This document shows positions 3,001 to 62,178 of a DNA stretch of 64,000 nucleotides, piece after piece (position 1 is the first letter of the stretch; each line of letters opens with the position of its first letter). Location: positions 663-64,662 of the forward strand of contig JBOHBN010000209.1 of assembly GCA_050698355.1 (NCBI GenBank). The letters run 5' to 3'. The DNA comes from Streptosporangiales bacterium (lineage in GTDB: Bacteria; Actinomycetota; Actinomycetes; Streptosporangiales; WHST01). A program made the position numbers and the translations under genes. Below the pieces are notes generated by a model. That model was given only the letters and a program-made list of their open reading frames with translations. It ran no database searches and was not told the origin of the DNA.

Positions 3001-3717
3001 ATGGCAAGCCCGTTGACGTCGATGCGCCTGACGGAGGGGGTCGCGGAGCACATCCGCGGCATGATCCACCGCGGCGAGCTCGGCCCCGGCGACCGGCTGC
3101 CGTCCGAGCGCGAGCTCGCCGAGGAGCTCGGTGTGGCGCGCGCGAGCCTGCGAGAGGCCATCAAGTCGCTCGCGGCGCGCGGGTACGTGGAGGTACGGCG
3201 GGGCGCGAACGGCGGGACGTTCGTCACCGAGCTGTCCAGGCCGTTCAGCGAATGGCGCGAGCACGTGCGCGAGCAGCACGGTGAGATGGACGAGATCATC
3301 GACTTTCGCACGGCGTTGGAGCAACACGCTGCCGGCTTGGCCGCGCAGCGCCGGGACCGTGGCGATCTCACCCAGCTACGAAACGCGATCACGATGATGG
3401 AGTCCGCGGAGAGCCGGGCAAAGTTCCGGCTGTCCGACTCGCGGTTCCACAGTGCGGTGGCCCGAGCGTCGAAGAACACCCGCCTGCAGACGGGTATCGA
3501 CCAGGTGCGCGGGGAGCTGTTCAGTCCGCACGACCTGCTCGAATACGTCGAGCCCGTGGCGGAGTCGCTGACCGATCACCAAGAGATCTACGGGGCGATC
3601 CGGGACAAGGACGCCGCGCGTGCGTCGTCACTCATGGCGGAGCACATCGAGCGTACTCGCGAGCAGCTGCGGGTGATCGTCTTGCAGGATCATCGGCGCA
3701 AGCGCAAGCCCCGGTGA
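3001..3717 (+). CDS. GntR/FadR-family transcriptional regulator
   Basis: This is the internal ATG of the 500-aa track ORF; the upstream part of that ORF is antisense shadow of the XRE gene. The winged HTH is GDRLPSERELAEELGVARASLREAIKSLAARGYVEVRRG, followed by an FCD-like helical C-terminus. It is divergent from the XRE-cupin gene. Confidence 0.85.
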   Translation: MASPLTSMRLTEGVAEHIRGMIHRGELGPGDRLPSERELAEELGVARASLREAIKSLAARGYVEVRRGANGGTFVTELSRPFSEWREHVREQHGEMDEIIDFRTALEQHAAGLAAQRRDRGDLTQLRNAITMMESAESRAKFRLSDSRFHSAVARASKNTRLQTGIDQVRGELFSPHDLLEYVEPVAESLTDHQEIYGAIRDKDAARASSLMAEHIERTREQLRVIVLQDHRRKRKPR

Positions 3718-3766
3718 TCATGAAACATGTGCGTAGGCATAGCTACGACAAGTTTTCATGATCACC
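3713..3766. promoter_or_regulatory. 13-bp inverted repeat GGTGATCATGAAA-N28-TTTCATGATCACC between the GntR gene and mgsA
   Basis: The arms are at 3713-3725 and 3754-3766 and are perfectly complementary. The spacer is unusually AT-rich for this DNA. The left arm covers the GntR stop codon. Confidence 0.4.
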
Positions 3767-3891
3767 CAGGGGGCCGGAGGGGCAACTCTTGACAGGCGAC
3801 TGCGCCGCAGTGTTGCATCGCTTCGGGTGATTGGTCTGTGGTTTGGACCTTAGACCCATGATCGGTCATGTGTCTCGAGGAGCGATGGCGA

Positions 3892-16161: not shown

Positions 16162-16184
16162 CCGCGCGGGTGGTCCAGGCCTGT

Positions 16185-16240
16185 GGGCCGCAAAGTGCCC
16201 TTGGTGCCCCTATGAAGGCATCATGGGCACCTTGCGGCCC
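16185..16240. terminator. Bidirectional hairpin between convergent gabD and the gvp cluster
   Basis: GGGCCGCAAAGTGCCC (16185-16200) pairs with GGGCACCTTGCGGCCC (16225-16240). These are 16-nt arms with one mismatch. Confidence 0.55.
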
Positions 16241-16274
16241 CATGTGAGCGTGACGGGCACTATGCGCCCTGGCC

Positions 16275-19897: not shown

Positions 19898-21019
19898 TCA
19901 CCTGCTCCTTCCAGACGTCGCCGGGCGGCGAGTCCTGCGATTGCGGGGTGCTTCCTCGGCCGGTTCTTCCGGCGCTTCCTCTTCCTCGTCCTCCGGCGCT
20001 TCCTCTTCCTCGTCCTCCGGCTGTTCCTCGTCCTCGTCCTCCGGCTGTTCCTCGTCCTCGGCTGCCGGCTCCTCCTCGGGCGACTCCTCGTCGTCCTCGT
20101 CCTGTGGCTCATCTTCAGACCCGGGCGGCTCCTGATCGTCTCGGCCCTCGCCGCTCTCGTCCTGGTCTTCCTCTTCCTCGGCCAGCGCGTCCTCGTGGCT
20201 CTTGACGACCTCGCTGTCACGGATCTCGCCGCGCCAGCCCTCGACGTCGTCGGGGTCGAGGATCGTCTGGGTCATCACGTGCCGGCGGAAGTGCTTGAGC
20301 TCGAGCCGGGCACGGCGCCCCTGCGCGCGCCACAGGTTCCCCGTCTTCTCGAAGAAGCCCTGCGGGTGGTACTCGAGCACCACCAGGATCCGGGTCAGGC
20401 GCGGGCCGAGCTCGTGGAAGGTGACGGTTCCGTCGACGTGGCCCTTCTGTCCCGATGAGCGCCACACGATGCGGTCGTCGGGAACCTGCTCGGTGATGGT
20501 CGACTCCCAGGATCGGTGCGACCAGAAGACCTGAGCCTTCAGGTTGACCTTCCCGTCCTCCTCCTGCTCGGCGTGCTCCACCTTCTTCATGAAGCTGGTC
20601 CAGTCCTGGTACTGCGTCCACTGGTTGTACGCGACCCGCACCGGTACGCCGACGTCGATGTCCTCGACGATGTTGGTGACCTTCACGTCACCACCTCCTC
20701 CGCCGCTCGAGCCGCCGCCCAGCGCTTCCTTCACCTTGTCCCCGACGCCGGAGAAGACCCCCTTGAGCGCACCCTTCGCCGGGGACCCACCCTGAGCGCC
20801 TTCCTGTGCCCCCCGTATCGCGGCCATCAGGCCCGGGCCGCCCTTGTCGTTCGCGTACTCGGTGAGCCGCTCGGTGAGACCCTGTGCCTGATCTACCAGG
20901 GAGTTGGCGCCCCGCTCCGCGAATGCGAGTGCCACGTTCTTCAGCTCGTCCTTCAGCCGGTCGGTGGGAAGGTCGCGGGCAAGCTCGCCCAGGCCGGGTG
21001 TGCTCTTCGCGTCAGCCAT
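19898..21019 (-). CDS. SRPBCC (cyclase/dehydrase-like) domain protein with helical/Gly-rich N-terminus and a poly-acidic, then basic, C-terminal tail
   Basis: Start at ATG 21019 (MADAKSTPGL). The central part VKVTNIVEDIDVGVPVRVAYNQWTQYQDWTSFMKKVEH...IVWRSSGQKGHVDGTVTFHELGPRLTRILVVLEY looks SRPBCC-like. The tail is EEEDQDESGEGRDDQEPP..EDEEEEAPEDEEEEAPEE..RNRRTRRP. It lies directly upstream of gvpA. Confidence 0.65.
   Translation of the reverse strand: MADAKSTPGLGELARDLPTDRLKDELKNVALAFAERGANSLVDQAQGLTERLTEYANDKGGPGLMAAIRGAQEGAQGGSPAKGALKGVFSGVGDKVKEALGGGSSGGGGGDVKVTNIVEDIDVGVPVRVAYNQWTQYQDWTSFMKKVEHAEQEEDGKVNLKAQVFWSHRSWESTITEQVPDDRIVWRSSGQKGHVDGTVTFHELGPRLTRILVVLEYHPQGFFEKTGNLWRAQGRRARLELKHFRRHVMTQTILDPDDVEGWRGEIRDSEVVKSHEDALAEEEEDQDESGEGRDDQEPPGSEDEPQDEDDEESPEEEPAAEDEEQPEDEDEEQPEDEEEEAPEDEEEEAPEEPAEEAPRNRRTRRPATSGRSR
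19971..20060. repeat. Tandem 24-bp repeats (about 3.75 units) inside the acidic-tail coding region
   Basis: GGCGCTTCCTCTTCCTCGTCCTCC occurs twice (19971-20018). GGCTGTTCCTCGTCCTCGTCCTCC follows about 1.75 times (20019-20060). Together they encode the EEEAPEDE/EDEEQPED repeats. Confidence 0.9.
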
Positions 21020-21566
21020 TGGACTTGCTCCCTCGCTGCCGCGACGAGCTCTTGGTCGACCTGCTCGAGCTCGTCGACTTGCGGCGGGAACTCGTCGAAC
21101 CCCCGCGACTGGAGCTGCTGCGCTTGCGCGCCGGCTGCGGTTCGGGTTCGGGCTCGGGCTCTTCCTCGTCGTCGGCCGATTCCTCGTCGTCGTCGGCAGG
21201 TTGCTCATCGGACGGCGGTTCCTCGTCCGCGGGCGGCTCCTCCTCGCCGGTACCCTCCGATCCGGGGGACCGCAACTGCGTCGCGCGCTGCTGGAGCCGA
21301 TCGCTCAGCGCGTCCATGCCCTTGCCGGCAGCCGCTGCCGCGGCCTCGCGGCCCGCGTCGGCGAGGCGGCCGCGTGCGTCACCGCCAATGCGCTGCAGCG
21401 CCGGTGAGGACTCGAGCAGGTTCTTGCCCTGCTCGAGCAGCGCGGTTCTGTCCAGACGCTTGCCGGCGGCAACCGCGCCGAGCATCAAGGCGAGCTTCAT
21501 CTTCTTGGTCCGGCCGAGGGCGTAGCCGATGGCTATGCCGAGCGCGACCGTACCTTGCGATTTCAT
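21012..21566 (-). CDS. Hypothetical protein: N-terminal hydrophobic segment, Ala-rich helical region, poly-acidic stretch, Ser/Arg/Lys-rich tail. First gene of the gvp operon.
   Basis: Start at ATG 21566 (MKSQGTVALGIAIGYALGRTKKMKLALMLGAVAAGK), preceded by GGAGAG. The C-terminus is ..EEEPEPEPEPQPARKRSSSSRGGSTSSRRKSTSSSRSTKSSSRQRGSKSNG. It overlaps the next gene by 8 nt. Confidence 0.55.
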   Translation of the reverse strand: MKSQGTVALGIAIGYALGRTKKMKLALMLGAVAAGKRLDRTALLEQGKNLLESSPALQRIGGDARGRLADAGREAAAAAAGKGMDALSDRLQQRATQLRSPGSEGTGEEEPPADEEPPSDEQPADDDEESADDEEEPEPEPEPQPARKRSSSSRGGSTSSRRKSTSSSRSTKSSSRQRGSKSNG

Positions 21567-23894: not shown

Positions 23895-23938
23895 GTGTCA
23901 GTAGCTCAGCCCGCTACAGCGAGCTGAGCTACTGACAC
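23895..23938. terminator. Perfect 16-bp-stem hairpin between convergent genes. Member of the ACTGACA palindromic repeat family.
   Basis: GTGTCAGTAGCTCAGC (23895-23910) / GCTGAGCTACTGACAC (23923-23938). Confidence 0.6.
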
Positions 23939-23942
23939 CCGG

Positions 23943-27592: not shown

Positions 27593-27694
27593 AGATGACT
27601 TACCACGACGTACAGGGATCTACCAGGAGCTGTGGACCGAGGTAAGTCCCGGTTGATCACGGTACCGTGACCAACCGGGACGGGTTGTGTTCCT

Positions 27695-31761: not shown

Positions 31762-31813
31762 CACGTTGTCAGTGTCTGGTCGAGCTATGGCTCGACCAGA
31801 CACTGACAACGTG
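31762..31813. terminator. Perfect 24-bp-stem, 4-nt-loop hairpin between convergent genes (ACTGACA repeat family)
   Basis: CACGTTGTCAGTGTCTGGTCGAGC-TATG-GCTCGACCAGACACTGACAACGTG. Confidence 0.7.
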
Positions 31814-34154: not shown

Positions 34155-35267
34155 TCATGGCGTGTACTCCACCTCCGCGGACCGTTGGGCGGTCACGTAC
34201 TTCGCGATCTCGTCGTGCCCGACACCGCCGAGCACCGCACCATCCTGGTCGACGCGTACGGCGAGGCCGGCGGGAGACGCCAGCGCACCGTCGAGGGCGG
34301 CGCGGCAGGAGTCGCTCGCGGTGAACGTGGTGCCGACGGGGATGCTCGTCGGTTCCTCGCTGACGGGGCCCCGGCCGTCCACCCAGGCGACCGGCCGCCT
34401 CGCCTCGTCGAGCGACAGGATCCAGTGCTTGCCGGACTCTGTCGACACCTGACGGGGAGCCTCGGCGCCCGCGTCCGCCGCGACCGTGACGAGCTCCTGC
34501 AGCGGCAGGTCGTGGGCCGCCACGAACGACAGCCAGCGGTAGCCACGGTCGCGCCCGATGAGGCTCTCGACGAACGCGCTGTTCGGCGTGGCGAGCAGCT
34601 GGTCGGGCGGGTCGACCTGGACGAGCTTGCCGCCGGGACCGAAGACCGCGACGAGGTCGCCGAGCTTGACCGCCTCGTCCACGTCGTGGGTCACGAACAC
34701 GATCGTCTTCGACAGCTCGCCTTGCAGCCGGAGGAACTCCTCTTGCAGGCTTTCGCGGACGATCGGGTCGACGGCGCTGAACGGCTCGTCCATCAGCATG
34801 ACCGGTGGGTCGGCCGCGAGCGCCCTGGCCACGCCCACTCGCTGCTGCTGGCCACCGGACAGCTGCGCAGGGTAGCGCTTGGCCATCTGCGGATCGAGTC
34901 CGACGCGCTCGAGCAGCTCCATCGACCGCTCGCGCGCGGCGGACTTCGACCAGCGGAGCAGCAACGGGACCGTGCAGACGTTGTCGACCACGGTGCGGTG
35001 CGGCAGCAGGCCGACCTGCTGGATGACGTAGCCCATACCGCGTCGCAGGCGGGCAAGGTTCATGGTCGCGGTGTCGTCGCCGTCGTGCAGGATACGGCCG
35101 GACGTCGGCTCGACCATTCGGTTGATCATCCGCAGCGACGTGGTCTTGCCGCACCCGGACGGCCCGACGAACACCGTGATCTTGCCGGTCGGCATGGTCA
35201 GGTCGACCCCGTCGACTCCGACCACGCCTCCAGGGAAGCGTTTAGTGACGGACTGGAACTCGATCAT
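34155..35267 (-). CDS. ABC transporter ATP-binding protein with C-terminal tandem CBS region (OpuCA/ProV type)
   Basis: Start at ATG 35267 (MIEFQSVTKRF). Walker A is GPSGCGKTT, the signature is LSGGQQQRV and Walker B is LMDEPFSAVD. The upstream part of the 886-aa track ORF is shadow across the MFS gene. Confidence 0.9.
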   Translation of the reverse strand: MIEFQSVTKRFPGGVVGVDGVDLTMPTGKITVFVGPSGCGKTTSLRMINRMVEPTSGRILHDGDDTATMNLARLRRGMGYVIQQVGLLPHRTVVDNVCTVPLLLRWSKSAARERSMELLERVGLDPQMAKRYPAQLSGGQQQRVGVARALAADPPVMLMDEPFSAVDPIVRESLQEEFLRLQGELSKTIVFVTHDVDEAVKLGDLVAVFGPGGKLVQVDPPDQLLATPNSAFVESLIGRDRGYRWLSFVAAHDLPLQELVTVAADAGAEAPRQVSTESGKHWILSLDEARRPVAWVDGRGPVSEEPTSIPVGTTFTASDSCRAALDGALASPAGLAVRVDQDGAVLGGVGHDEIAKYVTAQRSAEVEYTP

Positions 35268-39590: not shown

Positions 39591-39640
39591 GTTGTGTCCG
39601 AGGAACCGGCCGCAATCGCGACCGGTTCCTCGGACACAAC
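39591..39640. terminator. Perfect 19-bp-stem hairpin between convergent genes
   Basis: GTTGTGTCCGAGGAACCGG-N12-CCGGTTCCTCGGACACAAC. Confidence 0.7.
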
Positions 39641-49654: not shown

Positions 49655-50143
49655 CTACGGGCTTCGCTCCATCGTCACCACGACCTGTGCCGGGCGGAAG
49701 ACGCGCGACCCGTGCGCGAAGCCGCGCCGCCGCAGCTCGACCACGCGGCCGGCGGGTGCGCCGCCCGTAGCCGCGGAGGCGACCGCCTCGTGCCGGTCGG
49801 GGTCGAACACGTCGGCCTCGACCTGGGTCACCCCGTGTCGCGCGAGCACGTCGAGCAGCTCGTCGCGCACCGAGCGGACGAACTGCGGGTCCGCGCCGTC
49901 GTAGCGATCGAGCCGGTCGATGACCAGGGCGAGGCCGTGAATGAGCGGTTCGAGGAACTCCCGGAACGGGCCGTCCTTGGCCTGCCGTAGCTCTTCGCGC
50001 AGCGTCTCGATCGCCTCGCGCTTGCCCCGGTCGTCGAGCAGGCGCCGCTGGAACAGGTCGCGGAGCTCATCCAGCCGATTGACGACATCGACGTGGCCGG
50101 CATCCTCGACATAGTCGACCTGCTCTTGATCAGACGAGCTCAC
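49655..50143 (-). CDS. Short GrpE-like nucleotide-exchange factor
   Basis: GTG at 50143 overlaps the Hsp70 stop (GTGA). The 162-aa product has a coiled-coil (NRLDELRDLFQRRLLDDRGKREAIETLREEL), then GVTQVEADVFDPDRHEAVASA...VVELRRRGFAHGSRVFRPAQVVV, which matches the GrpE C-terminal beta-domain pattern. Confidence 0.7.
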   Translation of the reverse strand: MSSSDQEQVDYVEDAGHVDVVNRLDELRDLFQRRLLDDRGKREAIETLREELRQAKDGPFREFLEPLIHGLALVIDRLDRYDGADPQFVRSVRDELLDVLARHGVTQVEADVFDPDRHEAVASAATGGAPAGRVVELRRRGFAHGSRVFRPAQVVVTMERSP

Positions 50144-51684
50144 TCGACCTCCACGCTGCCCATCGCGACCCGCATCTGGTCGACCTCGGAACGGTCCAGG
50201 TTGAGCGGGCGGTCCAGCTCGATCTCGCCGAGCGACTTGTTGTTGGTGAGGTCGACGATCTCGACGTGCACCACGCCGTCGATGTCGTAGGACATGATGA
50301 CCTTCATGTTCGACCCCCTCCGCAAGCCGGTCGGCAGGTCGATCGGTCGCTCCAGCAGGATCGTGACGTACTCCGGCTCCGGGTCGTCGCCCTCGGTCAC
50401 CTGGAACAGCCATTGCCGCTGATCGTCCGACAGCGTGTGGAAGGTGTTCTCGTGCTTGCACGGGATCTTGCTGTTCTTCGGGATGACCGGGAAGTTGCGC
50501 AGCGGGTCACCCTCGTTCCCCCCGCCGGCGACGGCGAGCACGCCGAGGCTCTGCGAGGTGACGTCCTTGATGGAGATAGCCGCCGCTTGAGCGCCCTCGC
50601 CGCGACTCCTCTCGGTGGGGCCGCTTCCCTCGGCCGCTGCCATGTCGGCGACGGTCGCGGCGCCGAGCGCCACCGCCTCGTCGGGATTGATCCGCGACTC
50701 CGGCACCAACCCCCCGACCCGCTCGATCATCTGCGCGATCATCGGCATCCGGGTCGAGCCACCGACGAGCAGGATGCGGTCGATCTGTGACCACTGGAGT
50801 CCCGCGTCGTCCATGACGCCTTCGAGCGTCACCTCCGTACGGTCGAGCAGGGGCTTGGTCATCGCCTCGAACTGCTCGCGGGTCACCTGGATGCGGTGGC
50901 TGCTGCCGCCTGCGGTGATGAACACCGACGCCTGACCCACGCCCGTGAGCGTGCGCTTGGCGAGCTCGCACTTCTCCCGCAGGTCGGTCTCCATCGCGCC
51001 ACTGTCGAGCAGGTCGGGCCCGCCGGCCCGCCGCACCTGGTTCGCCACGTGCTTCATCAGCTCGTTGTCGAAGTCGAAGCCGCCGAGGTTGCGGTCGCCG
51101 TCGGTGGCGATGACCTCGAACTCGCCCTTGTCGACCTTCATCGCGGTCACGTCGAACGTGCCGCCGCCGAGGTCGTAGACAAGGATCGTGCCGCTGTCGA
51201 GGCCCTGCAGCCCGTACGCGACGGCGGCGGCGGTCGGTTCGTTGATGAGGCGCAGGACGTTCAGGCCGGCGATCTCGCCCGCGTCCTGGGTCGCCTTGCG
51301 CCGCGCGTCGTCGAAGTACGCCGGGACGGTGATGACGACGTCCTCGATGCGTTCGCCCTGCAGCAGCTCGGCGTCGTCGACGAGGTGCTTGAGGATGAAC
51401 GCCGAGACCTGTTCCGCGCGGTACTCGTTGCCCTGGGTGTCGACGAACCGCCAGTGCGGGTCGCCCATGAAGCGCTTCACGAACGCGGCGGAGTCGTCGG
51501 GCATGGCCGCCGCGCTGCGCTTCGCGGTGGACCCGACCAGCACTTGGCCGCCCTGCGACAGCACCACGGAGGCCGTGATGTTCTCGCCTTCCCGGTTGCG
51601 CAGGATCTGCGGCGTGCCGTCGCTGTCGACGGCCGCAACGGCCGAGAAAGTCGTACCCAGGTCGATTCCCAGGGCTCGCGTCAC
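50140..51684 (-). CDS. Atypical Hsp70-family ATPase lacking the alpha-helical lid (HscC-like)
   Basis: NBD motifs GIDLGTTFSAVA, VITVPAYFDDARRKATQDAG, DLGGGTFDVT and LVGGSTRMP. A beta-sandwich SBD follows (IKDVTSQSLGV...) and the protein ends about 130 aa later. The start was set at GTG 51684 (VTRALGIDLG) because the 45 upstream codons of the track ORF translate a repeat element. Confidence 0.85.
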   Translation of the reverse strand: MTRALGIDLGTTFSAVAAVDSDGTPQILRNREGENITASVVLSQGGQVLVGSTAKRSAAAMPDDSAAFVKRFMGDPHWRFVDTQGNEYRAEQVSAFILKHLVDDAELLQGERIEDVVITVPAYFDDARRKATQDAGEIAGLNVLRLINEPTAAAVAYGLQGLDSGTILVYDLGGGTFDVTAMKVDKGEFEVIATDGDRNLGGFDFDNELMKHVANQVRRAGGPDLLDSGAMETDLREKCELAKRTLTGVGQASVFITAGGSSHRIQVTREQFEAMTKPLLDRTEVTLEGVMDDAGLQWSQIDRILLVGGSTRMPMIAQMIERVGGLVPESRINPDEAVALGAATVADMAAAEGSGPTERSRGEGAQAAAISIKDVTSQSLGVLAVAGGGNEGDPLRNFPVIPKNSKIPCKHENTFHTLSDDQRQWLFQVTEGDDPEPEYVTILLERPIDLPTGLRRGSNMKVIMSYDIDGVVHVEIVDLTNNKSLGEIELDRPLNLDRSEVDQMRVAMGSVEVE

Positions 51685-51698
51685 TGTCCCACCGTCCT

Positions 51699-51791
51699 TA
51701 CCGAGGAGATCATCACTAGCTGGACCGCCGAGACGCCATTGTTGCAGTTCAGCGAGCCTCGACAGTCGGGCAACTAATGATCTCCTCGGTA
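51699..51791 (-). ncRNA. Copy 1 of a ~90-nt conserved rod-like hairpin element (candidate cis-regulatory RNA or palindromic DNA element), sense to the downstream Hsp70 gene
   Basis: 15-bp terminal arms TACCGAGGAGATCAT/ATGATCTCCTCGGTA. By hand alignment its reverse complement matches 57850-57938 without gaps at 69 of 89 positions, and the stem differences are compensatory. The 5' arm covers the stop codon of the J-like gene. Confidence 0.5.
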
Positions 51792-52970
51792 CCGAAGCCT
51801 CTTCCGGTTGCGCTTCCAACCCGGAACTCGCGTGTTGAAGTACAGCAGCACAAGGATGCCAGCCGCCAGGACGAATGCGGTGACACCGGTGCCCAGCTCA
51901 TCTCCCAGCCAAGTCACGCCTGCGATGACGAGCGCGACGGCCAGGCCGAGCACGACGAGCAGGAACCTACGCATCAGCCCGGTCGCGACGTGCCACTGCC
52001 GCCGCTCGCACCACCGCAGGTACCCGCGTACGTCGCCCGCTCGATCGCGTACGTCCGGATCGTCGGTTACCCGCTCGGCCTCCTGCACGAGGCCGCGCAT
52101 CCGGGCGATCTCGGCCTTGCTGGTCACGAAGTAGTTGCTGCCGTCGCGATACCTGGGTACGAGCTCGGCCAACGTGATCAGGCAGTTCCCGAGGGCCACG
52201 CCCGCGGCCTGCTTGTCGTGGCCGCGCTCCACGATGTCCTCGAGAACCGGACGCGCCTGCGCCGGCTTCCCGGCTTGCATCCAGGCGTTCGCGGCGGCGA
52301 GGCGCGGCCTCTCGTCGCTACGGTCGAGGTCCGCGGCCGAGGAGTAGACGCCGGCCGCGTCGTCCCACTGTCCCAGCGCCTCGTGGATGCCGCCGAGGTC
52401 CAGGTGGAACTGCAGGTAGTTCGGCGCGAGCTCGATCGCCCGCTGCATCTCGAACAGCGCGTCGTCGGCGTTGCCCAGCCCCAGGTTCGCGCGCGCCAGG
52501 ACGCTCCACGCCGCCGCGGACCGCGGGTCGCGCTCGCGCGCCTCGCGCGCGGCGTACACGGCCGACCGGTGATCGCGCTTGGCCAGGTAGTCGAACGCCT
52601 GTCCGACCCAGTCGATGCCGTCCTGCGGCGGCTGGGGTGCGGGCCGCTGCCGCGGCGCGGGGGCCGGCTGCCCTCCCGGCTGCGGCGCCGGTTCGGGTCG
52701 GGGCTCGGGTTCCGGCTCGCTCGGCCCCCTCTCCAGCCTGCGCAGGTACGCGGCGCGGCGCGCGTCGTCGAGCAGGACCTCCTTGGCCTCGCTTAGGAGC
52801 TGGACCTTCTTCTCGGCCTCCTGGCGGCGGGCGAGGTCGGGGTTGCTCGTGCGCTTCTGCCAGGTGCGCAGCTCCTGCTTGACCCGCCGGGAGATCTCCT
52901 CGGCCGCTGCACCGCGTGGTATTCCGAGGGCCTCGAAGTAGTCGAGGGCGGGGCCCCCGTGGTCGTTCAC
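51774..52970 (-). CDS. J-domain-like / TPR-repeat protein with two C-terminal TM helices. The HPD motif is replaced by NPD.
   Basis: 398 aa. The N-terminus is LDYFEALGIPRGAAAEEISRRVKQELRTWQKRTSNPDLARRQEAEKKVQLLSEAKEVLLDDARRAAYLRRL. A Pro-rich linker follows, then TPR-like AWSVLARANLGLGNADDALFEMQRAIELAPNY.. and C-terminal FLLVVLGLAVALVIAGV / AFVLAAGILVLLYF. GTG start after GGGAGG. Confidence 0.7.
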   Translation of the reverse strand: MNDHGGPALDYFEALGIPRGAAAEEISRRVKQELRTWQKRTSNPDLARRQEAEKKVQLLSEAKEVLLDDARRAAYLRRLERGPSEPEPEPRPEPAPQPGGQPAPAPRQRPAPQPPQDGIDWVGQAFDYLAKRDHRSAVYAAREARERDPRSAAAWSVLARANLGLGNADDALFEMQRAIELAPNYLQFHLDLGGIHEALGQWDDAAGVYSSAADLDRSDERPRLAAANAWMQAGKPAQARPVLEDIVERGHDKQAAGVALGNCLITLAELVPRYRDGSNYFVTSKAEIARMRGLVQEAERVTDDPDVRDRAGDVRGYLRWCERRQWHVATGLMRRFLLVVLGLAVALVIAGVTWLGDELGTGVTAFVLAAGILVLLYFNTRVPGWKRNRKRLRYRGDH

Positions 52971-53059
52971 CGCTGGACCTCCCAGTCCCGTTCTCGGATC
53001 AGTATCTCAGCCCATCTACAGCGGGGTTCGCGATACTGGCACGTTGGCAGGCTCAGCCA

Positions 53060-54190
53060 TCAGGGGGCGCGGTGGCCGACCCACTGGCCGCAGGCGAGCA
53101 CCGCGCGTACGGACAGGTCGGCGTCGAGCACGACCGCGTCGGCGCGCTTGCCCGCCTCGAGGCTGCCCACCCGGTCCGCGAGCCCGAGCGCGGTCGCGGG
53201 CGTGAGGGACGCAGCGCGTACGACCTCCGGCCACGACGCACCGACCTCGCGCACTCCGCGGCGCACTGCCTGGTCCATGGTCAGGGTGCTGCCCGCTATC
53301 GAGTCGCCGTCGGCCAGCCTGGCGACGCCATCCTCGACCCGCACCGCCACCCCACCGAGCATGTACGTGCCCTCGCCGACGCCGGCGGCGCTCATGGCGT
53401 CGGTGACGAGCGCGGCGTTGCTGCTGGCCAGCCCGAAGCCCACGACCCGGTCGTGCAGGTGTACGCCGTCGTTGATCAGCTCGCAGGTGACCTCCGGGGC
53501 CGTGAGGCATGCGAGCACGGGTCCCGGCTCGCGATGGTGCAGACCCCGCATGCCGTTGAACAGGTGCGTGGCGACGGTCGCACCGGCGTCGATGGCCGAC
53601 GCGGTTTGGTCGTACGTCGCGTCGGTGTGCCCGACTGCGGCGATGAGCCCCGCGGCGACGGCGCGGCGTACGAGGTCGACCCCGCCGGGGCGCTCGGGCG
53701 CGATCGTCACCATGCGCGCGTGCCCGCCTGCCGCCTGCACCATCGCGTCCAGGGCGGCCGGGTCCGGTTCGCGCAGGTGCGCGGGGTCCTGGGCGCCGCA
53801 CCGGGCCGCGCTCAGGAACGGGCCCTCGAAGTGGACGCCGGCGACCACCCCTTCCGCGGCGAGCCGGCCGAGCATCGCCCCGTGCGCGGCCAGGTCGGCT
53901 ACGGGTGCGGTGACCAGGCTGGCGAGCAGTGTGGTCGTCCCGTGCCGCAGGTGGAAGCCGGCGACGGACCGCGCCTCCGCCTCGTCACCGGAGGTGAACG
54001 CCGCGCCGCCGCCGCCGTGGCAGTGCATGTCCACCAGGCCCGGGAGCAGGTAGCCGGCCCCGACGTCCACGCGGTGCGGGTCGTCCGGCGGCTCGCCCTC
54101 GCCGACTGCCGCGATGCGGTCGCCGTCGACGCGTACCCAGCCGGCGACCACCCGATCGGGCAGCACGACGTGGGAGCAGATGAGCAGCAT
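53060..54190 (-). CDS. nagA: N-acetylglucosamine-6-phosphate deacetylase
   Basis: GLVDMHCHGGGG, GVHFEGPF, GHTDATY and THLFNGM. ATG 54190 after GGAGGAGAGGA is preferred over 54253. Confidence 0.85.
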   Translation of the reverse strand: MLLICSHVVLPDRVVAGWVRVDGDRIAAVGEGEPPDDPHRVDVGAGYLLPGLVDMHCHGGGGAAFTSGDEAEARSVAGFHLRHGTTTLLASLVTAPVADLAAHGAMLGRLAAEGVVAGVHFEGPFLSAARCGAQDPAHLREPDPAALDAMVQAAGGHARMVTIAPERPGGVDLVRRAVAAGLIAAVGHTDATYDQTASAIDAGATVATHLFNGMRGLHHREPGPVLACLTAPEVTCELINDGVHLHDRVVGFGLASSNAALVTDAMSAAGVGEGTYMLGGVAVRVEDGVARLADGDSIAGSTLTMDQAVRRGVREVGASWPEVVRAASLTPATALGLADRVGSLEAGKRADAVVLDADLSVRAVLACGQWVGHRAP

Positions 54191-54486: not shown

Positions 54487-55578
<1,092 letters not shown>

Positions 55579-55717
55579 GCCGGTTCATCCGGGTGGGTAG
55601 CTAGGTCCACCCGGATGTGCCGGTCACGACGTCGCCTGCAGGCCGTGAGAAGCAGGAAATGGTCGTGGGAAGTACGCCCGATTCTGGTTGCCGCGGAGGC
55701 TGTTCACCGCCGCTTGG

Positions 55718-56149
55718 TCACAACGGCCGGGCGAAGTGATGCGCGGTGATCCCGTAGCCCGCGTTCAGGTACAGCCGGTGGGCCGGGTGTCGGCCCGGGC
55801 CGACACCGGAGTCCAGGTGCACCTGTGCGCAACCCAGGCGTACGGCCTCGTCGCGGACCCATGCGAGCAGCTGGCGGGCGAGGCCCCGGCCGCGGGCGGA
55901 CGGCATCGTCGAGAGGTCGTCCACGTACACGTGCCGACCCCAGCTCAGGCAGGTTGCCACCCGGAAGCCGGCGACCGCCACGGCGTCGGCGCCCGACCCG
56001 GGAAACGCCCCGACCAGGCGATAACCCTCGGCCCGCTGGACGGTGTCGACCTGCTCGACGAACGCCTCCAGGCTGGCCAGGTGGGGTCGTAGCTCGCGCA
56101 TGGCTGCGTACGCCGCACCCGTATCGGGCGGCACGATCTCCCTCGGCAC
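55718..56149 (-). CDS. GNAT-family N-acetyltransferase
   Basis: 143 aa with VDDLSTMPSARGRGLARQLLAWVRDEAVRLGC (acetyl-CoA binding motif A). Confidence 0.85.
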   Translation of the reverse strand: MPREIVPPDTGAAYAAMRELRPHLASLEAFVEQVDTVQRAEGYRLVGAFPGSGADAVAVAGFRVATCLSWGRHVYVDDLSTMPSARGRGLARQLLAWVRDEAVRLGCAQVHLDSGVGPGRHPAHRLYLNAGYGITAHHFARPL

Positions 56150-56156
56150 TGGGCCA

Positions 56157-56633
56157 TCATCGCACTGGCTCGCGCGCCGGGGTGCGCAAGAGGTTCACGG
56201 CCAGCAGGATGAACGCGGCGGTGAACAGGGCGAAGCCGACGGCGTGCCCCAGCTCCCACCGATCCCGCAGCGCGGCCCACCCCGCCGGTACGGCGCCGGA
56301 CCCGTGCACGGGGAATTGGAGGTTCACCGGGTACACGATGGTGAGGAACGTGATCAGCGCGATTACTTCCAGCGCGGCGGCGGCTGTTACCAGCCCGCGC
56401 GACGACCGTTCCTTGCGTAGTGCGACGGCCAACGCGACGCTCGCGACGATGGCGAGCACGTAGATCACGCTGCCGACGTTGCCGAACCAGATGTACAGCG
56501 ACTCCTGCAGCCGTACGTACAGCGCTGCAGGGTAGTGCGTCTTCGGCTGCCATTCCAGGACGTGCGCGAACTCGAGGCCCATCGTACACGCCGACAGGAG
56601 CATTGCGCCGAAGTAGATACCGCGACGCAGCAT
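56157..56633 (-). CDS. DUF1772-like four-TM membrane protein
   Basis: 158 aa with four hydrophobic helices. The family call is from memory. Confidence 0.5.
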   Translation of the reverse strand: MLRRGIYFGAMLLSACTMGLEFAHVLEWQPKTHYPAALYVRLQESLYIWFGNVGSVIYVLAIVASVALAVALRKERSSRGLVTAAAALEVIALITFLTIVYPVNLQFPVHGSGAVPAGWAALRDRWELGHAVGFALFTAAFILLAVNLLRTPAREPVR

Positions 56634-56773
56634 GGTCCCCGCCCTTCGATCCGATCAGCTGTTGTACGAATGGTGCAGCTGCACGAGGCCGTGCGCATCG
56701 GGGAGATCCCGGTTTCTGACCCGGAAACCGCGCCCGCGGCCGGCCGACCCCGGCTGTGGGATCATCGTCTCCT

Positions 56774-57736
56774 ATGGGAGAACGCGTCGTCCCGTCTGTC
56801 GAAGAGATCGAGTACGCCGCCGACGAGCTGGACCCGGTGTTCGCCGACTCGCCGCTGCTGACCGGCACCACCCTGGATGATCTGGGGACGCGTATCGCGG
56901 TCAAGGTCGAAACGCTGAACCCGATCAGGTCGTTCAAGGGTCGCGGGGCGATGACCTGGATGCGGCAGGTCGGCGCCGGCGCACCCGGAGTGGTGTGCGC
57001 CTCGGCGGGCAACTTCGGCCAGGGCCTCGCGTACGCGGCCCGCCGCGCCGGGGCCCGCTGCGACGTCTTCGTCGGCGAGTCCGCGAACCCGGCCAAGGTG
57101 GACGCCATTCGCCGGCTCGGTGCGCAGGTCGAGGTCGGTGGTGCGGACTACGACGCGGCGATCGACACCGCACGGAGTTTCGCCGCGGACAACGACCTCC
57201 GCTTCGTCCAGGACGGCCGCGACCCGTGGATCTCCGCCGGAGCCGCGACGATGGCCGTGGAGACGACCCGGGCAGGTGTCGTACCGGACGTCGCGGTCGT
57301 GCCGGTCGGCAACAGCGCGCTGATCCTGGGGATCGCGCGATGGTTGCGCCACCAGTCTCCCGGTGTGCGCATCGTCGGCGTGTGCGCCGAAGCTGCCCCG
57401 GCACCGGCCCTGTCCTGGCGGCGGGGCGCGCCCGTAGCGGCACAGGCGAACACCGTGGCGGACGGCATCGGCATCGGCGCGCCGTTTCCCGAATCGGTGG
57501 CCGCGATGGGTGATCTGGTCGACGCCATGGTGCTGGTCAGCGAGCCCGAGCTCACGGCGGCGAGCCGCCAGGTCGCAGCCGACCTCGGCCTGCTGGTCGA
57601 GGCGGCCGGCGTCGCCGGCGTGGCGGCGCTGCGGGCGGACCCCGAGGCGTATGAGGGCCGCACCGTGTTCACCCCGCTGTGCGGCGCGCACCTGCCACCC
57701 GACGCCATCCAGTGGGGGCCGGGCTGGCGTCTGTGA
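56774..57736 (+). CDS. PLP-dependent threonine/serine dehydratase family protein
   Basis: KVETLNPIRSFKGRGA (PLP Lys), SAGNFGQGLAYAA and VPVGNSALILG. Confidence 0.8.
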   Translation: MGERVVPSVEEIEYAADELDPVFADSPLLTGTTLDDLGTRIAVKVETLNPIRSFKGRGAMTWMRQVGAGAPGVVCASAGNFGQGLAYAARRAGARCDVFVGESANPAKVDAIRRLGAQVEVGGADYDAAIDTARSFAADNDLRFVQDGRDPWISAGAATMAVETTRAGVVPDVAVVPVGNSALILGIARWLRHQSPGVRIVGVCAEAAPAPALSWRRGAPVAAQANTVADGIGIGAPFPESVAAMGDLVDAMVLVSEPELTAASRQVAADLGLLVEAAGVAGVAALRADPEAYEGRTVFTPLCGAHLPPDAIQWGPGWRL

Positions 57737-57849
57737 ACCCGGTGGTCCGCTCCCGGTCGAGCGCTGTCGGCGCCGCCCCATAAGGTACTAACGTCTTAGG
57801 CGCGACCGCAGCGGCTGAATGACAGCGCTGTGGTTCACGCTGTACGATG

Positions 57850-57938
57850 CTAGGGAGATCATTAGTTGTCCGACAATCGAGGCCTACTGGTCTGCAGCAA
57901 TATCGTCTCGACGGTCCAGCCAGTAATGATCTCCCTAG
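57850..57938 (+). ncRNA. Copy 2 of the ~90-nt rod-like hairpin element, sense to the downstream DUF3263 gene
   Basis: 15-bp terminal arms CTAGGGAGATCATTA/TAATGATCTCCCTAG. It ends 40 nt before the ATG at 57979. Confidence 0.5.
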
Positions 57939-57978
57939 TAGGGCCGAACCCCGACCCGCAGTCGCCGGAGGATCGCAG

Positions 57979-58272
57979 ATGGACGCGACCGCACGAACGC
58001 ACGAGGACGCCCCGATGACCGGCGAGCTGTCGGATCGCGACGTCGAGATGCTCGCGTTCGAGCGGCGGTGGTGGAAGTACGCCGGCGCCAAGGAGCAGGC
58101 GGTGCGTGACCTGTTCGGCATGTCGGGCACCCGCTACTACCAGGTCCTCAATGCCCTCATCGACCACCCGGAGGCCCTCGCCCACGACCCGATGCTGGTC
58201 AAGCGGCTGCGCCGGATGCGGTCGGCCCGGCAGCGCGCCAGGTCGGAGCGCCGCCTCGGCACCGGCAGCTAG
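57979..58272 (+). CDS. DUF3263-like small protein
   Basis: 97 aa MDATARTHEDAPMTGELSDRDVEMLAFERRWWKYAGAKEQAVRDLFGMSGTRYYQVLNALIDHPEAL. ATG after GGAGGAT. The upstream 44 codons of the track ORF are the repeat element. Confidence 0.65.
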   Translation: MDATARTHEDAPMTGELSDRDVEMLAFERRWWKYAGAKEQAVRDLFGMSGTRYYQVLNALIDHPEALAHDPMLVKRLRRMRSARQRARSERRLGTGS

Positions 58273-59405: not shown

Positions 59406-60260
59406 GTGGCGGGGCCACAAGGGTTTGAGGCTGAGTCGAGTTTCCCAGCATGTTCCAAGGCGGGCCGGGAGGGGCTGAGCACGATCCGGGCCGCTCCCGA
59501 GCACGCGCTGGTCGCCCTGGACTTCGACGGCACCCTCGCCCCGATCGTCTCCGACCCCACCCAGGCGCGCCCGGTCGAGGGCACGCTGGAGACCCTCGCG
59601 CGGCTCGCCGCAACCGTCGGCACCGTCGCTGTGCTGACCGGCAGGCCCGCCCGCACCGCCGTGGAGTACACGGGACTTGCCGAGCTCACCGGCGCGGCCG
59701 GGTTGCTCGTGCTCGGCCACTACGGGCTGGACCGCTGGGAGGCGGCGACGGGCTCGTACCATGCCGCGCCCGCACCCGCGGGGCTCGCCGCCGCGCATGC
59801 CGAGCTACCCGGCGTGCTGGACGCTGCCGACCTCCCGCCGGGCGTCACGGTCGAGGACAAGGGGGTCTCGGTGGCCGTGCACACCCGCAGGTCCGCCGAC
59901 CCCGCCGCGGCGATGACCGCCCTGCAGGGACCGCTCGCCGCGCTCGCCGAGCGCCACGACCTCACCGTGCAGCCCGGCCGGATGGTCGTGGAGCTGCGGG
60001 GCCACGGGTCGGACAAGGGCGCCGCGCTCGCGGCGCTCGTCGCCGAACGGGAGGCACGGTCGGTGCTGTTCGCCGGCGACGACCTCGGCGACGTGCCCGC
60101 GTTCGACACGGTGGAGAGGCTGCGCGCGGCAGGGACGCCCGGCGTCACCGTCGCGAGCGCCGGCCCGGAACCCGTACCAGCCCTGTCCGACCGCGCCGAC
60201 CTCGTCCTCGACGGGCCGTCCGCCGTCGTCGCCTACCTGCGCACACTTGTCAGTGCCTGA
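59406..60260 (+). CDS. otsB: Trehalose-6-phosphate phosphatase (HAD family)
   Basis: LDFDGTLAPIV (HAD motif I), VLTGRP, GSDKGAAL and FAGDDLGD. The GTG start is uncertain. Confidence 0.8.
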   Translation: MAGPQGFEAESSFPACSKAGREGLSTIRAAPEHALVALDFDGTLAPIVSDPTQARPVEGTLETLARLAATVGTVAVLTGRPARTAVEYTGLAELTGAAGLLVLGHYGLDRWEAATGSYHAAPAPAGLAAAHAELPGVLDAADLPPGVTVEDKGVSVAVHTRRSADPAAAMTALQGPLAALAERHDLTVQPGRMVVELRGHGSDKGAALAALVAEREARSVLFAGDDLGDVPAFDTVERLRAAGTPGVTVASAGPEPVPALSDRADLVLDGPSAVVAYLRTLVSA

Positions 60261-60292
60261 TCGAGTCATAGGTCGATGAGACACTGACAACC

Positions 60293-61355: not shown

Positions 61356-62000
61356 TCAGCGGCGGTCGCCGGCCGGCCCGCCGTACCTGTCGTTGAGGTC
61401 GGTCGGGGTGTTGTACTCCAGCAGAGACACCCGGTCGCCGCGGACGAGCACCTCGGTGAGCCCGCAGTTGCGGATGAACGGGAACACGCGGCGGTACTCG
61501 CTGAGCGGAAGGCCGAGCAGCCGGCACAGCATGAGCCGGATCAGCGTGGTGTGCGCGACGACGAGCACCCGGCCGGTGCACTGGGCGCCGCAGATGTCGT
61601 GCAGCGCCGCCATCCCGCGCTCGACCGCCTTCTTGGGCTCTTCGCCGCCGGGCAGCGGGCTGTTCGCCGGATCCTCGACGAACGCCGCGTACGCCTCCGG
61701 GAACCGATCCCGCATCTGGGCGGTGGTGAGGCCCTCGGCGTCGCCGAAGTCCAGTTCGCGCAGCCGCGGGTCGATGCGCAGCTCGAGATCGGCGACGTCG
61801 ACGCACGGTTGCGCGGTGTCCCGCGCGCGACCCAGGTCGGACGACACCACACCGTCGAGCCCCGCGCGTGCGGCCCACTGCGCGAGCAGCCAGGCCTGCG
61901 CCTGACCGCGGTCGGTGAGCGGCACGTCGGTGCGGCCGGTGTACCGGTTCTCCGCATGTGTGGTGGTTTCGCCGTGCCGGACGAGGATGAGGTTGGTCAC
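61356..62000 (-). CDS. Histidine phosphatase (phosphoglycerate-mutase-like) family protein
   Basis: GTG 62000 after AAGAGGTGGG. LILVRHGET (RHG motif) and VVAHTTLIR. Confidence 0.8.
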   Translation of the reverse strand: MTNLILVRHGETTTHAENRYTGRTDVPLTDRGQAQAWLLAQWAARAGLDGVVSSDLGRARDTAQPCVDVADLELRIDPRLRELDFGDAEGLTTAQMRDRFPEAYAAFVEDPANSPLPGGEEPKKAVERGMAALHDICGAQCTGRVLVVAHTTLIRLMLCRLLGLPLSEYRRVFPFIRNCGLTEVLVRGDRVSLLEYNTPTDLNDRYGGPAGDRR

Positions 62001-62178
62001 GAGGCGTCCCACCTCTTTCCGAATGAGGCTCTCCGAATCACCCACACAAGTGACCGGAGAACCCCAATTGACCACGTTATGGATGCGTAGCCGGCCCTCT
62101 CGATGCCTGCAGCCATCGAGAAGGCGGAGTAAGCCCACATAACGTGGTCATTTGGATAAGGGCTGTGCTGGTGCGCGG

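Follow-up and report, generated by a model that had tools for sequence, protein, structure and literature searches.

Two closely similar, rod-like palindromes in the genome of an uncultured Streptosporangiales bacterium—one at the junction between a J-domain protein gene and an Hsp70 gene, the other upstream of a DUF3263 gene (Table 1)—are probably copies of a small, non-coding, palindromic transposable element of the MITE type that is restricted to this lineage. The two copies lie 6 kb apart and are mutually inverted within the window, the whole 64-kb stretch of DNA that was analyzed; these are the only two loci known for the element. The copies align without gaps, with 72 of 93 positions identical in the 93-nt register, and a recount in the 89-nt register returned exactly the 69 of 89 identities that had been counted by hand in the sequence-only reading. 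Beyond the element ends the two loci share no similarity. The termini read GGAGATCATTAG..., and with a GC content of 0.51–0.56 against 0.694 for the window, the element is AT-richer than its host DNA. The open frames that cross it are off-frame read-throughs, with no conserved ORF.

Table 1. Coordinates of the two element copies and of their neighboring features in the window.
Feature	Position	Strand	Remarks
Copy 1, 93-nt register	51699..51791	−	114 bits with covariance model R1
Copy 1 body, 89-nt palindrome	51701-51789	−	
Copy 1 flanks	51790-51791 and 51699-51700		TA and TA
Copy 2, 93-nt register	57848..57940	+	110 bits with covariance model R1
Copy 2 inserted DNA	57850-57940	+	89-nt palindrome (57850-57938) plus TA; from empty-site comparison
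J-domain plus TPR protein gene	51774..52970	−	Upstream of copy 1
Ribosome-binding site of the Hsp70 gene, AGGA type	51692-51698		Directly 3′ of copy 1
Hsp70-family gene, 514 aa, GTG start	50140..51684	−	NCBI protein MGH3096645.1, Streptosporangiales MAG
GrpE-like gene	49655-50461		After the Hsp70 gene
PLP-dependent enzyme (PALP) gene	56756..57736	+	Upstream of copy 2
Promoter-like ATGACA-N18-TACGAT	57819..57848	+	Conserved in close relative and outgroup
DUF3263 gene	57979..58272	+	Downstream of copy 2

The main evidence for insertion comes from the DUF3263 locus. In a close relative (92% amino acid identity in DUF3263, 94% in Hsp70, about 85% nucleotide identity; assemblies from runs ERR650975 to ERR651010), 11 of 11 contigs from 11 sequencing runs lack copy 2 at its site, with both flanks conserved. 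These empty sites read ...ATGACA-N18-TACGATG-GTGCCGATCGGGAGCCGCTTT-GCCGGAGGATCGCAG-ATG, the promoter-like sequence being followed directly by a leader only about 36 nt long, and the same empty architecture is found in an outgroup Streptosporangiales MAG and in an independent Logan assembly of that MAG. Because the site is empty in both the close relative and the outgroup, the alignments show copy 2 to be, on sequence comparison, a derived insertion of the window lineage only. The sequence-only reading had named many scattered copies with target-site duplications as the mark of a MITE; presence/absence polymorphism effectively answers the same question. The empty sites also define the insert, which comprises positions 3–93 of the 93-nt register; the TG at 57848-57849 is host sequence (TACGATG), present in the empty sites as well, and is not part of the copy 2 DNA. 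Copy 2 starts 1 nt past the second hexamer of the promoter-like sequence, and transcription should therefore begin inside its 5′ arm; if the predicted promoter is correct, the insertion separates the −10 box of DUF3263 from its transcription start. Both copies had been described as lying in sense orientation immediately 5′ of a start codon. The orientation holds for both, and the proximity for copy 1, which ends 14 nt before the Hsp70 GTG, but 38 nt separate the end of copy 2 from the DUF3263 ATG.

At the J–Hsp70 junction, the element is shared with the close relative, where its orthologue (L002:5427-5519, identical in L026-L028) retains 88% identity to copy 1, and it is absent from three more distant operons, in which the J–Hsp70 spacers measure 18, 16, and 39 nt. 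This distribution shows that the element was gained at the junction in the ancestor that the window genome shares with the close relative. A MITE-like insertion can in this way rewrite the end of a gene: the 5′ arm of copy 1 supplies the last five codons of the J-TPR gene and its stop (YRGDH, then stop), and the TAG at 51774-51776 bears out the earlier placement of the upstream stop codon within this arm. When the insert as defined at copy 2 is removed in silico from copy 1, the junction reads ...CGG TAA GGACGGTGGGACA GTG, in which an in-frame TAA stop precedes the Hsp70 GTG by 13 nt, much like the compact outgroup junctions. This reconstruction is consistent with copy 1 having entered the TA of the ancestral J-gene stop codon and having duplicated that TA. 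The chaperone cluster itself (49655-52970) is non-canonical, combining a J-domain/TPR protein with a short Hsp70 (about 510 aa) and a GrpE-like protein. The same cluster is conserved in Streptosporangiales and Propionibacteriales MAGs (L003, L014, L015), as well as in Streptomyces, Nocardia, and Nonomuraea, and an FtsK/SpoIIIE-type ATPase comes next after it in the outgroups.

Working criteria for prokaryotic MITEs (PMC11602168, PMC10969869) address size, terminal inverted repeats, target-site duplication, presence/absence, dispersed copies, and a related autonomous IS with matching termini. Two copies were found in the 64 kb, and exact-core scans brought up no such IS. Against an expected size of 50–800 bp (PMC11602168), the element measures 89–93 nt and carries neither a transposase nor a conserved ORF; against terminal inverted repeats of at least 10–15 bp, its ends form a 17-bp helix. 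Presence and absence vary at both loci, the copy 2 site being empty in relative and outgroup and copy 1 missing from the three distant operons. For a target-site duplication of 2–10 bp, the flanks read TA...TA in copy 1 and its orthologue and TG...TA in copy 2. Because of these TG/TA flanks, the target duplication at copy 2 is imperfect and not proven; further, TA is self-complementary, and hence the flanking TA could equally be the end of the palindrome. A 4-bp CTAG duplication of the IS5 type at copy 2 was considered and dropped: the counterpart flanks of copy 1 are inverted, not direct, and the empty sites contain no CTAG. The mechanism suggested by these features is one in which a transposase acting in trans would recognize the roughly 17-bp terminal inverted repeats and insert the element at a TA/TR dinucleotide. 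The mobilizing enzyme may be a TA-targeting DDE transposase, or alternatively a Y1/RAYT-type enzyme acting on the single-stranded DNA hairpin.

In several respects the element resembles the hairpin MITEs known from other bacteria (Correia/NEMIS of Neisseria, RUP of Streptococcus pneumoniae, and those derived from IS630/Tc1-mariner). It is about 100 bp long and non-coding, has perfect terminal inverted repeats with TA at both ends of copy 1, is AT-richer than its host, sits at gene junctions and promoters, is presumably co-transcribed as a stable RNA hairpin, and varies in presence between related genomes. It differs from them in lacking any sequence similarity, in residing in a high-GC actinobacterium, and in the TG/TA flanks of copy 2; no internal promoter or IHF-type site was detected within it. 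A likeness also exists to the ERIC/IRU elements of enterobacteria, which are imperfect palindromes of about 100 nt in transcribed intergenic regions of operons and can alter mRNA decay. These elements are, however, unrelated in sequence and in phylum, and ERIC occurs at many loci across genera whereas the present element is lineage-restricted.

Both copies are predicted to fold into rod-like RNA hairpins, with minimum free energies of −53.9 kcal/mol for copy 1 and −43.6 kcal/mol for copy 2 (z = −7.3 and −6.0; 0 of 200 shuffles equally stable), and the single-stranded DNA folds are non-random too (z = −5.3 and −4.9). The terminal helix spans 17 bp in the 93-nt register and is fully paired in copy 1, copy 2, and the copy 1 orthologue, such that 51 of 51 outer-stem cells across the three sequences are paired. 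The perfect 15-bp terminal helix of the sequence-only reading is thus paired in both copies, but it is entirely Watson–Crick only in copy 2; copy 1 contains one U.G wobble. The three consecutive, fully compensatory swaps between the copies (C-G/U-A, G-C/A-U, and A-U/G-C) were located at pairs 4/90, 5/89, and 6/88. An inner helix had also been said to keep its pairing; it does so between the copies, with pair 30/64 being U.G in one and U-A in the other, but four of its pairs are broken in the orthologue (L002). That orthologue nevertheless keeps the 17-bp stem through one G-C to A-U and one G-C to G.U change, and all four outer-stem substitutions between the copy 1 orthologues preserve sense-strand pairing.

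Covariation of this kind had been taken as a sign of selection on structure. The outer-stem pairing is indeed maintained, but the covariation score, which rests on three sequences, is matched by 28 of 500 shuffles and is not significant on its own. Pairing between the arms may have been kept by a requirement for matched, hairpin-competent ends during movement, by intrastrand templated correction of the quasi-palindrome, or by tolerance at the RNA level. Templated correction of quasi-palindromes is another route to compensatory changes. The further claim that covariation speaks against a MITE is not supported, given the empty orthologous sites: compensatory stem changes do not exclude mobility, because they are documented in mobile REPINs, whose hairpins show frequent compensatory changes and precise excision (PMC3116915). 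The general lesson is that compensatory changes between paralogous copies are not evidence against mobile DNA, and that the decisive test is the search for empty orthologous sites.

The same features raise the question of a REPIN-like origin, in which a hairpin repeat would be moved as single-stranded DNA by a Y1 transposase (RAYT or IS200-IS605 type) with selection acting on the hairpin itself. Proteobacteria and some cyanobacteria are the main known hosts of REPINs. Like them, the element is in its entirety a rod-like hairpin of about 90–110 nt, lies outside genes, and has precise gain/loss boundaries; the three adjacent compensated pairs of its terminal helix parallel the frequent compensatory changes and precise excision of REPINs (PMC3116915), and the single-stranded DNA folds are as strongly non-random as noted above. 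On inspection of the alignment, however, the arms contain no recognizable short REP sub-palindrome or conserved GTAG-type tetranucleotide, no RAYT (Y1 transposase) gene was seen among the about 20 window genes scanned, and the TA flanks better fit a cut-and-paste DDE transposase. A REPIN-like origin is accordingly judged unlikely.

As a MITE-type insertion, the element would be co-transcribed with its surroundings, inside the J–Hsp70–GrpE operon at copy 1 and at the 5′ end of the DUF3263 mRNA at copy 2, where it should form a very stable RNA hairpin with a possible secondary effect on mRNA processing or stability. It is conceivable, though on balance somewhat unlikely, that an element of mobile origin is now retained because its transcribed hairpin is useful, a proposal compatible with the MITE-type explanation. 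Between the J and Hsp70 cistrons, such a hairpin could block decay or be a site of processing by RNase III/E, and on the DUF3263 mRNA it could protect the transcript as a 5′-terminal stem-loop; RNase III is known to cleave Correia/NEMIS elements (PMC10969869). Both insertions are sense-oriented relative to their flanking genes, and in three of three sequences the predicted fold of the sense strand is more stable than that of the antisense strand (−53.9 versus −44.3 kcal/mol for copy 1, −43.6 versus −40.3 for copy 2, and −38.7 versus −36.6 for the orthologue). The outer stem has been preserved through G-C to A-U and G-C to G.U changes, and G.U outnumbers A.C at paired positions by 7 to 2. Moreover, the copy 1 orthologue is 88% conserved, compared with 68–81% at third codon positions and 69% in the neighboring intergenic region, an excess with a binomial P of 0.001–0.05 depending on the assumed neutral rate. 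Together, the excess conservation, the sense-strand pairing, and the preference for G.U over A.C hint at selection on the transcribed strand and at possible exaptation, with few independent events behind them. Set against this, there are only two independent insertions, for which a shared orientation has P = 0.5; the three sequences are mutually non-independent; the inner helix of the orthologue is broken; and the close relative does without copy 2.

In the sequence-only reading, the element was proposed to act on the chaperone operon as a dedicated cis-regulatory RNA or DNA operator—a thermosensor, an attenuator, or a palindrome bound by a dimeric regulator—and this interpretation has some initial appeal: a strong structure with compensatory pairs lies 14 nt upstream of the Hsp70 start and, like RNA thermometers and the CIRCE and HAIR operators, forms an inverted repeat upstream of a chaperone gene. 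The empty sites have largely refuted it already, and it must be considered highly improbable. The element is not conserved with the operon, being absent from the J–Hsp70 junctions of other lineages, and its second copy stands at an unrelated gene, at a site where the close relative has none. In the centroid structure of a longer fold, neither the ribosome-binding site nor the GTG of the Hsp70 gene is paired, and both are located outside the hairpin. A thermometer-type mechanism is therefore not supported, and a stem as stable as −54 kcal/mol would stay closed at physiological temperature. An intrinsic terminator was rejected as well: no U-tract or terminator-like site is predicted at copy 1 or copy 2, and the copy 1 hairpin begins ahead of the upstream stop codon. 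For a dimeric repressor, half-sites about 60 bp apart would be atypical.

Searches for known families likewise returned nothing, in agreement with the earlier failure to match the element to CIRCE, HAIR, or any RNA family. With up to 3 mismatches allowed, neither the CIRCE (HrcA) consensus TTAGCACTC-N9-GAGTGCTAA nor the HAIR (HspR) consensus CTTGAGT-N7-ACTCAAG was found in the window; Rfam 15 gave no match over the window at gathering score, and neither copy matched an Rfam family at E values up to 10. For want of partner genes, a conserved ORF, or promoter/terminator signals, four other candidates were rejected as well: integron attC site, retron, small ORF, and sRNA gene.

The relationship between the copies bears on where copy 2 came from. 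Among the variable positions of copy 1 (c1), its orthologue (o1), and copy 2 (c2), 15 have c1=o1≠c2, 5 have c1=c2≠o1, and 5 have o1=c2≠c1. Copy 2 is thereby placed as the outgroup to both copy 1 orthologues, though its insertion postdates their split. On these site patterns, copy 2 did not arise from copy 1 after the split, and at least one more, unsampled source copy should therefore have existed. The alternative to an unsampled template is precise loss of copy 2 from the relative; either history implies mobile behavior. The short distance of 6 kb and the inverted arrangement might also suggest a non-mobile origin, with local inverted duplication or gene conversion producing two similar palindromes. 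This is very unlikely: the flanks share no homology, the insertion boundaries are clean against conserved flanks, and a copy that is outgroup to the other two sequences is nonetheless younger than their divergence.

Further copies were sought across a broad range of data. Covariance model R1 recovered only the two known copies in the 64-kb window and only the copy 1 orthologues among 20 related loci, with no further copy in the relative's roughly 23 kb of unique DNA, its weak matches (10–23 bits) being unrelated hairpins. A scan for the exact core across GTDB species genomes (596 Gb), which like the other DNA collections searched evidently lack the source MAG, gave no other member but a single match, the 20-nt core GAGATCATTAGTTGTCCGAC in ispG of an Omnitrophota MAG (L001:6326-6345), where it codes for the conserved EIISCPT motif; because lone exact 20-mer matches are expected in 596 Gb, this is attributed to chance. 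A hairpin-pattern scan of JGI metagenomes gave seven AT-rich chance matches with similarity confined to the anchors, two IMG/VR scans found no further member, blastn against plasmids and phages found no element match, and translations of the element's open frames matched none of 5.8 billion proteins and 1.84 billion representatives. Among about 20 of the some 50 window ORFs, those around the copies, there was no transposase or autonomous parent; all are housekeeping genes.

If the MITE-type explanation is correct, the element would represent a MITE-like family not described before, from an actinobacterial lineage that has hardly been sampled. A more far-reaching proposal, and a rather doubtful one, is that of a hairpin-dependent actinobacterial mobile element, REPIN-like or moved by another single-strand mechanism, whose stem is kept by compensation and which now works within operons, through exaptation, as a module for RNA processing or stability.

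The window contains other structured intergenic sequences. One of them, a rod-like hairpin of about 92 nt with no relation to the element (62064-62155; RNA minimum free energy −50 to −54 kcal/mol, z about −7.7), lies in a roughly 177-nt stretch (62000-62178) between FGGY kinase and His_Phos_1 genes. The relative lacks this stretch, its two genes sharing an ATGA overlap instead (L016:5382-5385); in the window the stretch is bounded by ATGACC...GTGACC, and an arm of the hairpin repeats the junction motif CAAATGACCA. If this second lineage-specific hairpin is indeed an insertion, a wider undescribed class of "hairpin insertions" may shape operon junctions in high-GC actinobacteria. Shorter palindromes that have the core (T/G)TGTCAGT...ACTGACA(A/C) in common form a family, with members at 31762-31813, which has a perfect 24-bp stem, 60247-60291, and 23895-23939; all sit at gene 3′ ends, two of them between convergent genes, and they look like terminators or REP elements. 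Additional long, near-perfect intergenic hairpins (39591-39640, 27646-27681, 16182-16243, and 3708-3773, the last with arms GGTGATCATGAAA/TTTCATGATCACC) have z values from −4 to −10 and are unrelated in sequence to the element.

Larger differences from the relative are also apparent near the two loci. Between its amidohydrolase and J genes, the relative carries a 4.2-kb FecCD/ABC/periplasmic-binding-protein (siderophore-type) transporter operon (L026:1583-5783), in place of which the window has 78 nt (52982-53060). Conversely, a segment of about 1.2 kb in the window (55580-56782), with GNAT acetyltransferase and anthrone-oxygenase-like genes between the MalK-like ABC ATPase and PALP genes, is missing in the relative (L016:515-526). 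A 64-nt inverted match with 83% identity (35124-35187 versus 54576-54639), which also matches L026:103-163, probably represents two paralogous ABC transporter genes in the region of their conserved ATPase motif. Finally, tandem 24-nt repeats (CTCGTCCTCCGGC...TTCCTC) at 19943-20138 and 21123-21250, in a minus-strand ORF (19898-21208), would encode an acidic, Glu/Asp-rich repeat region.
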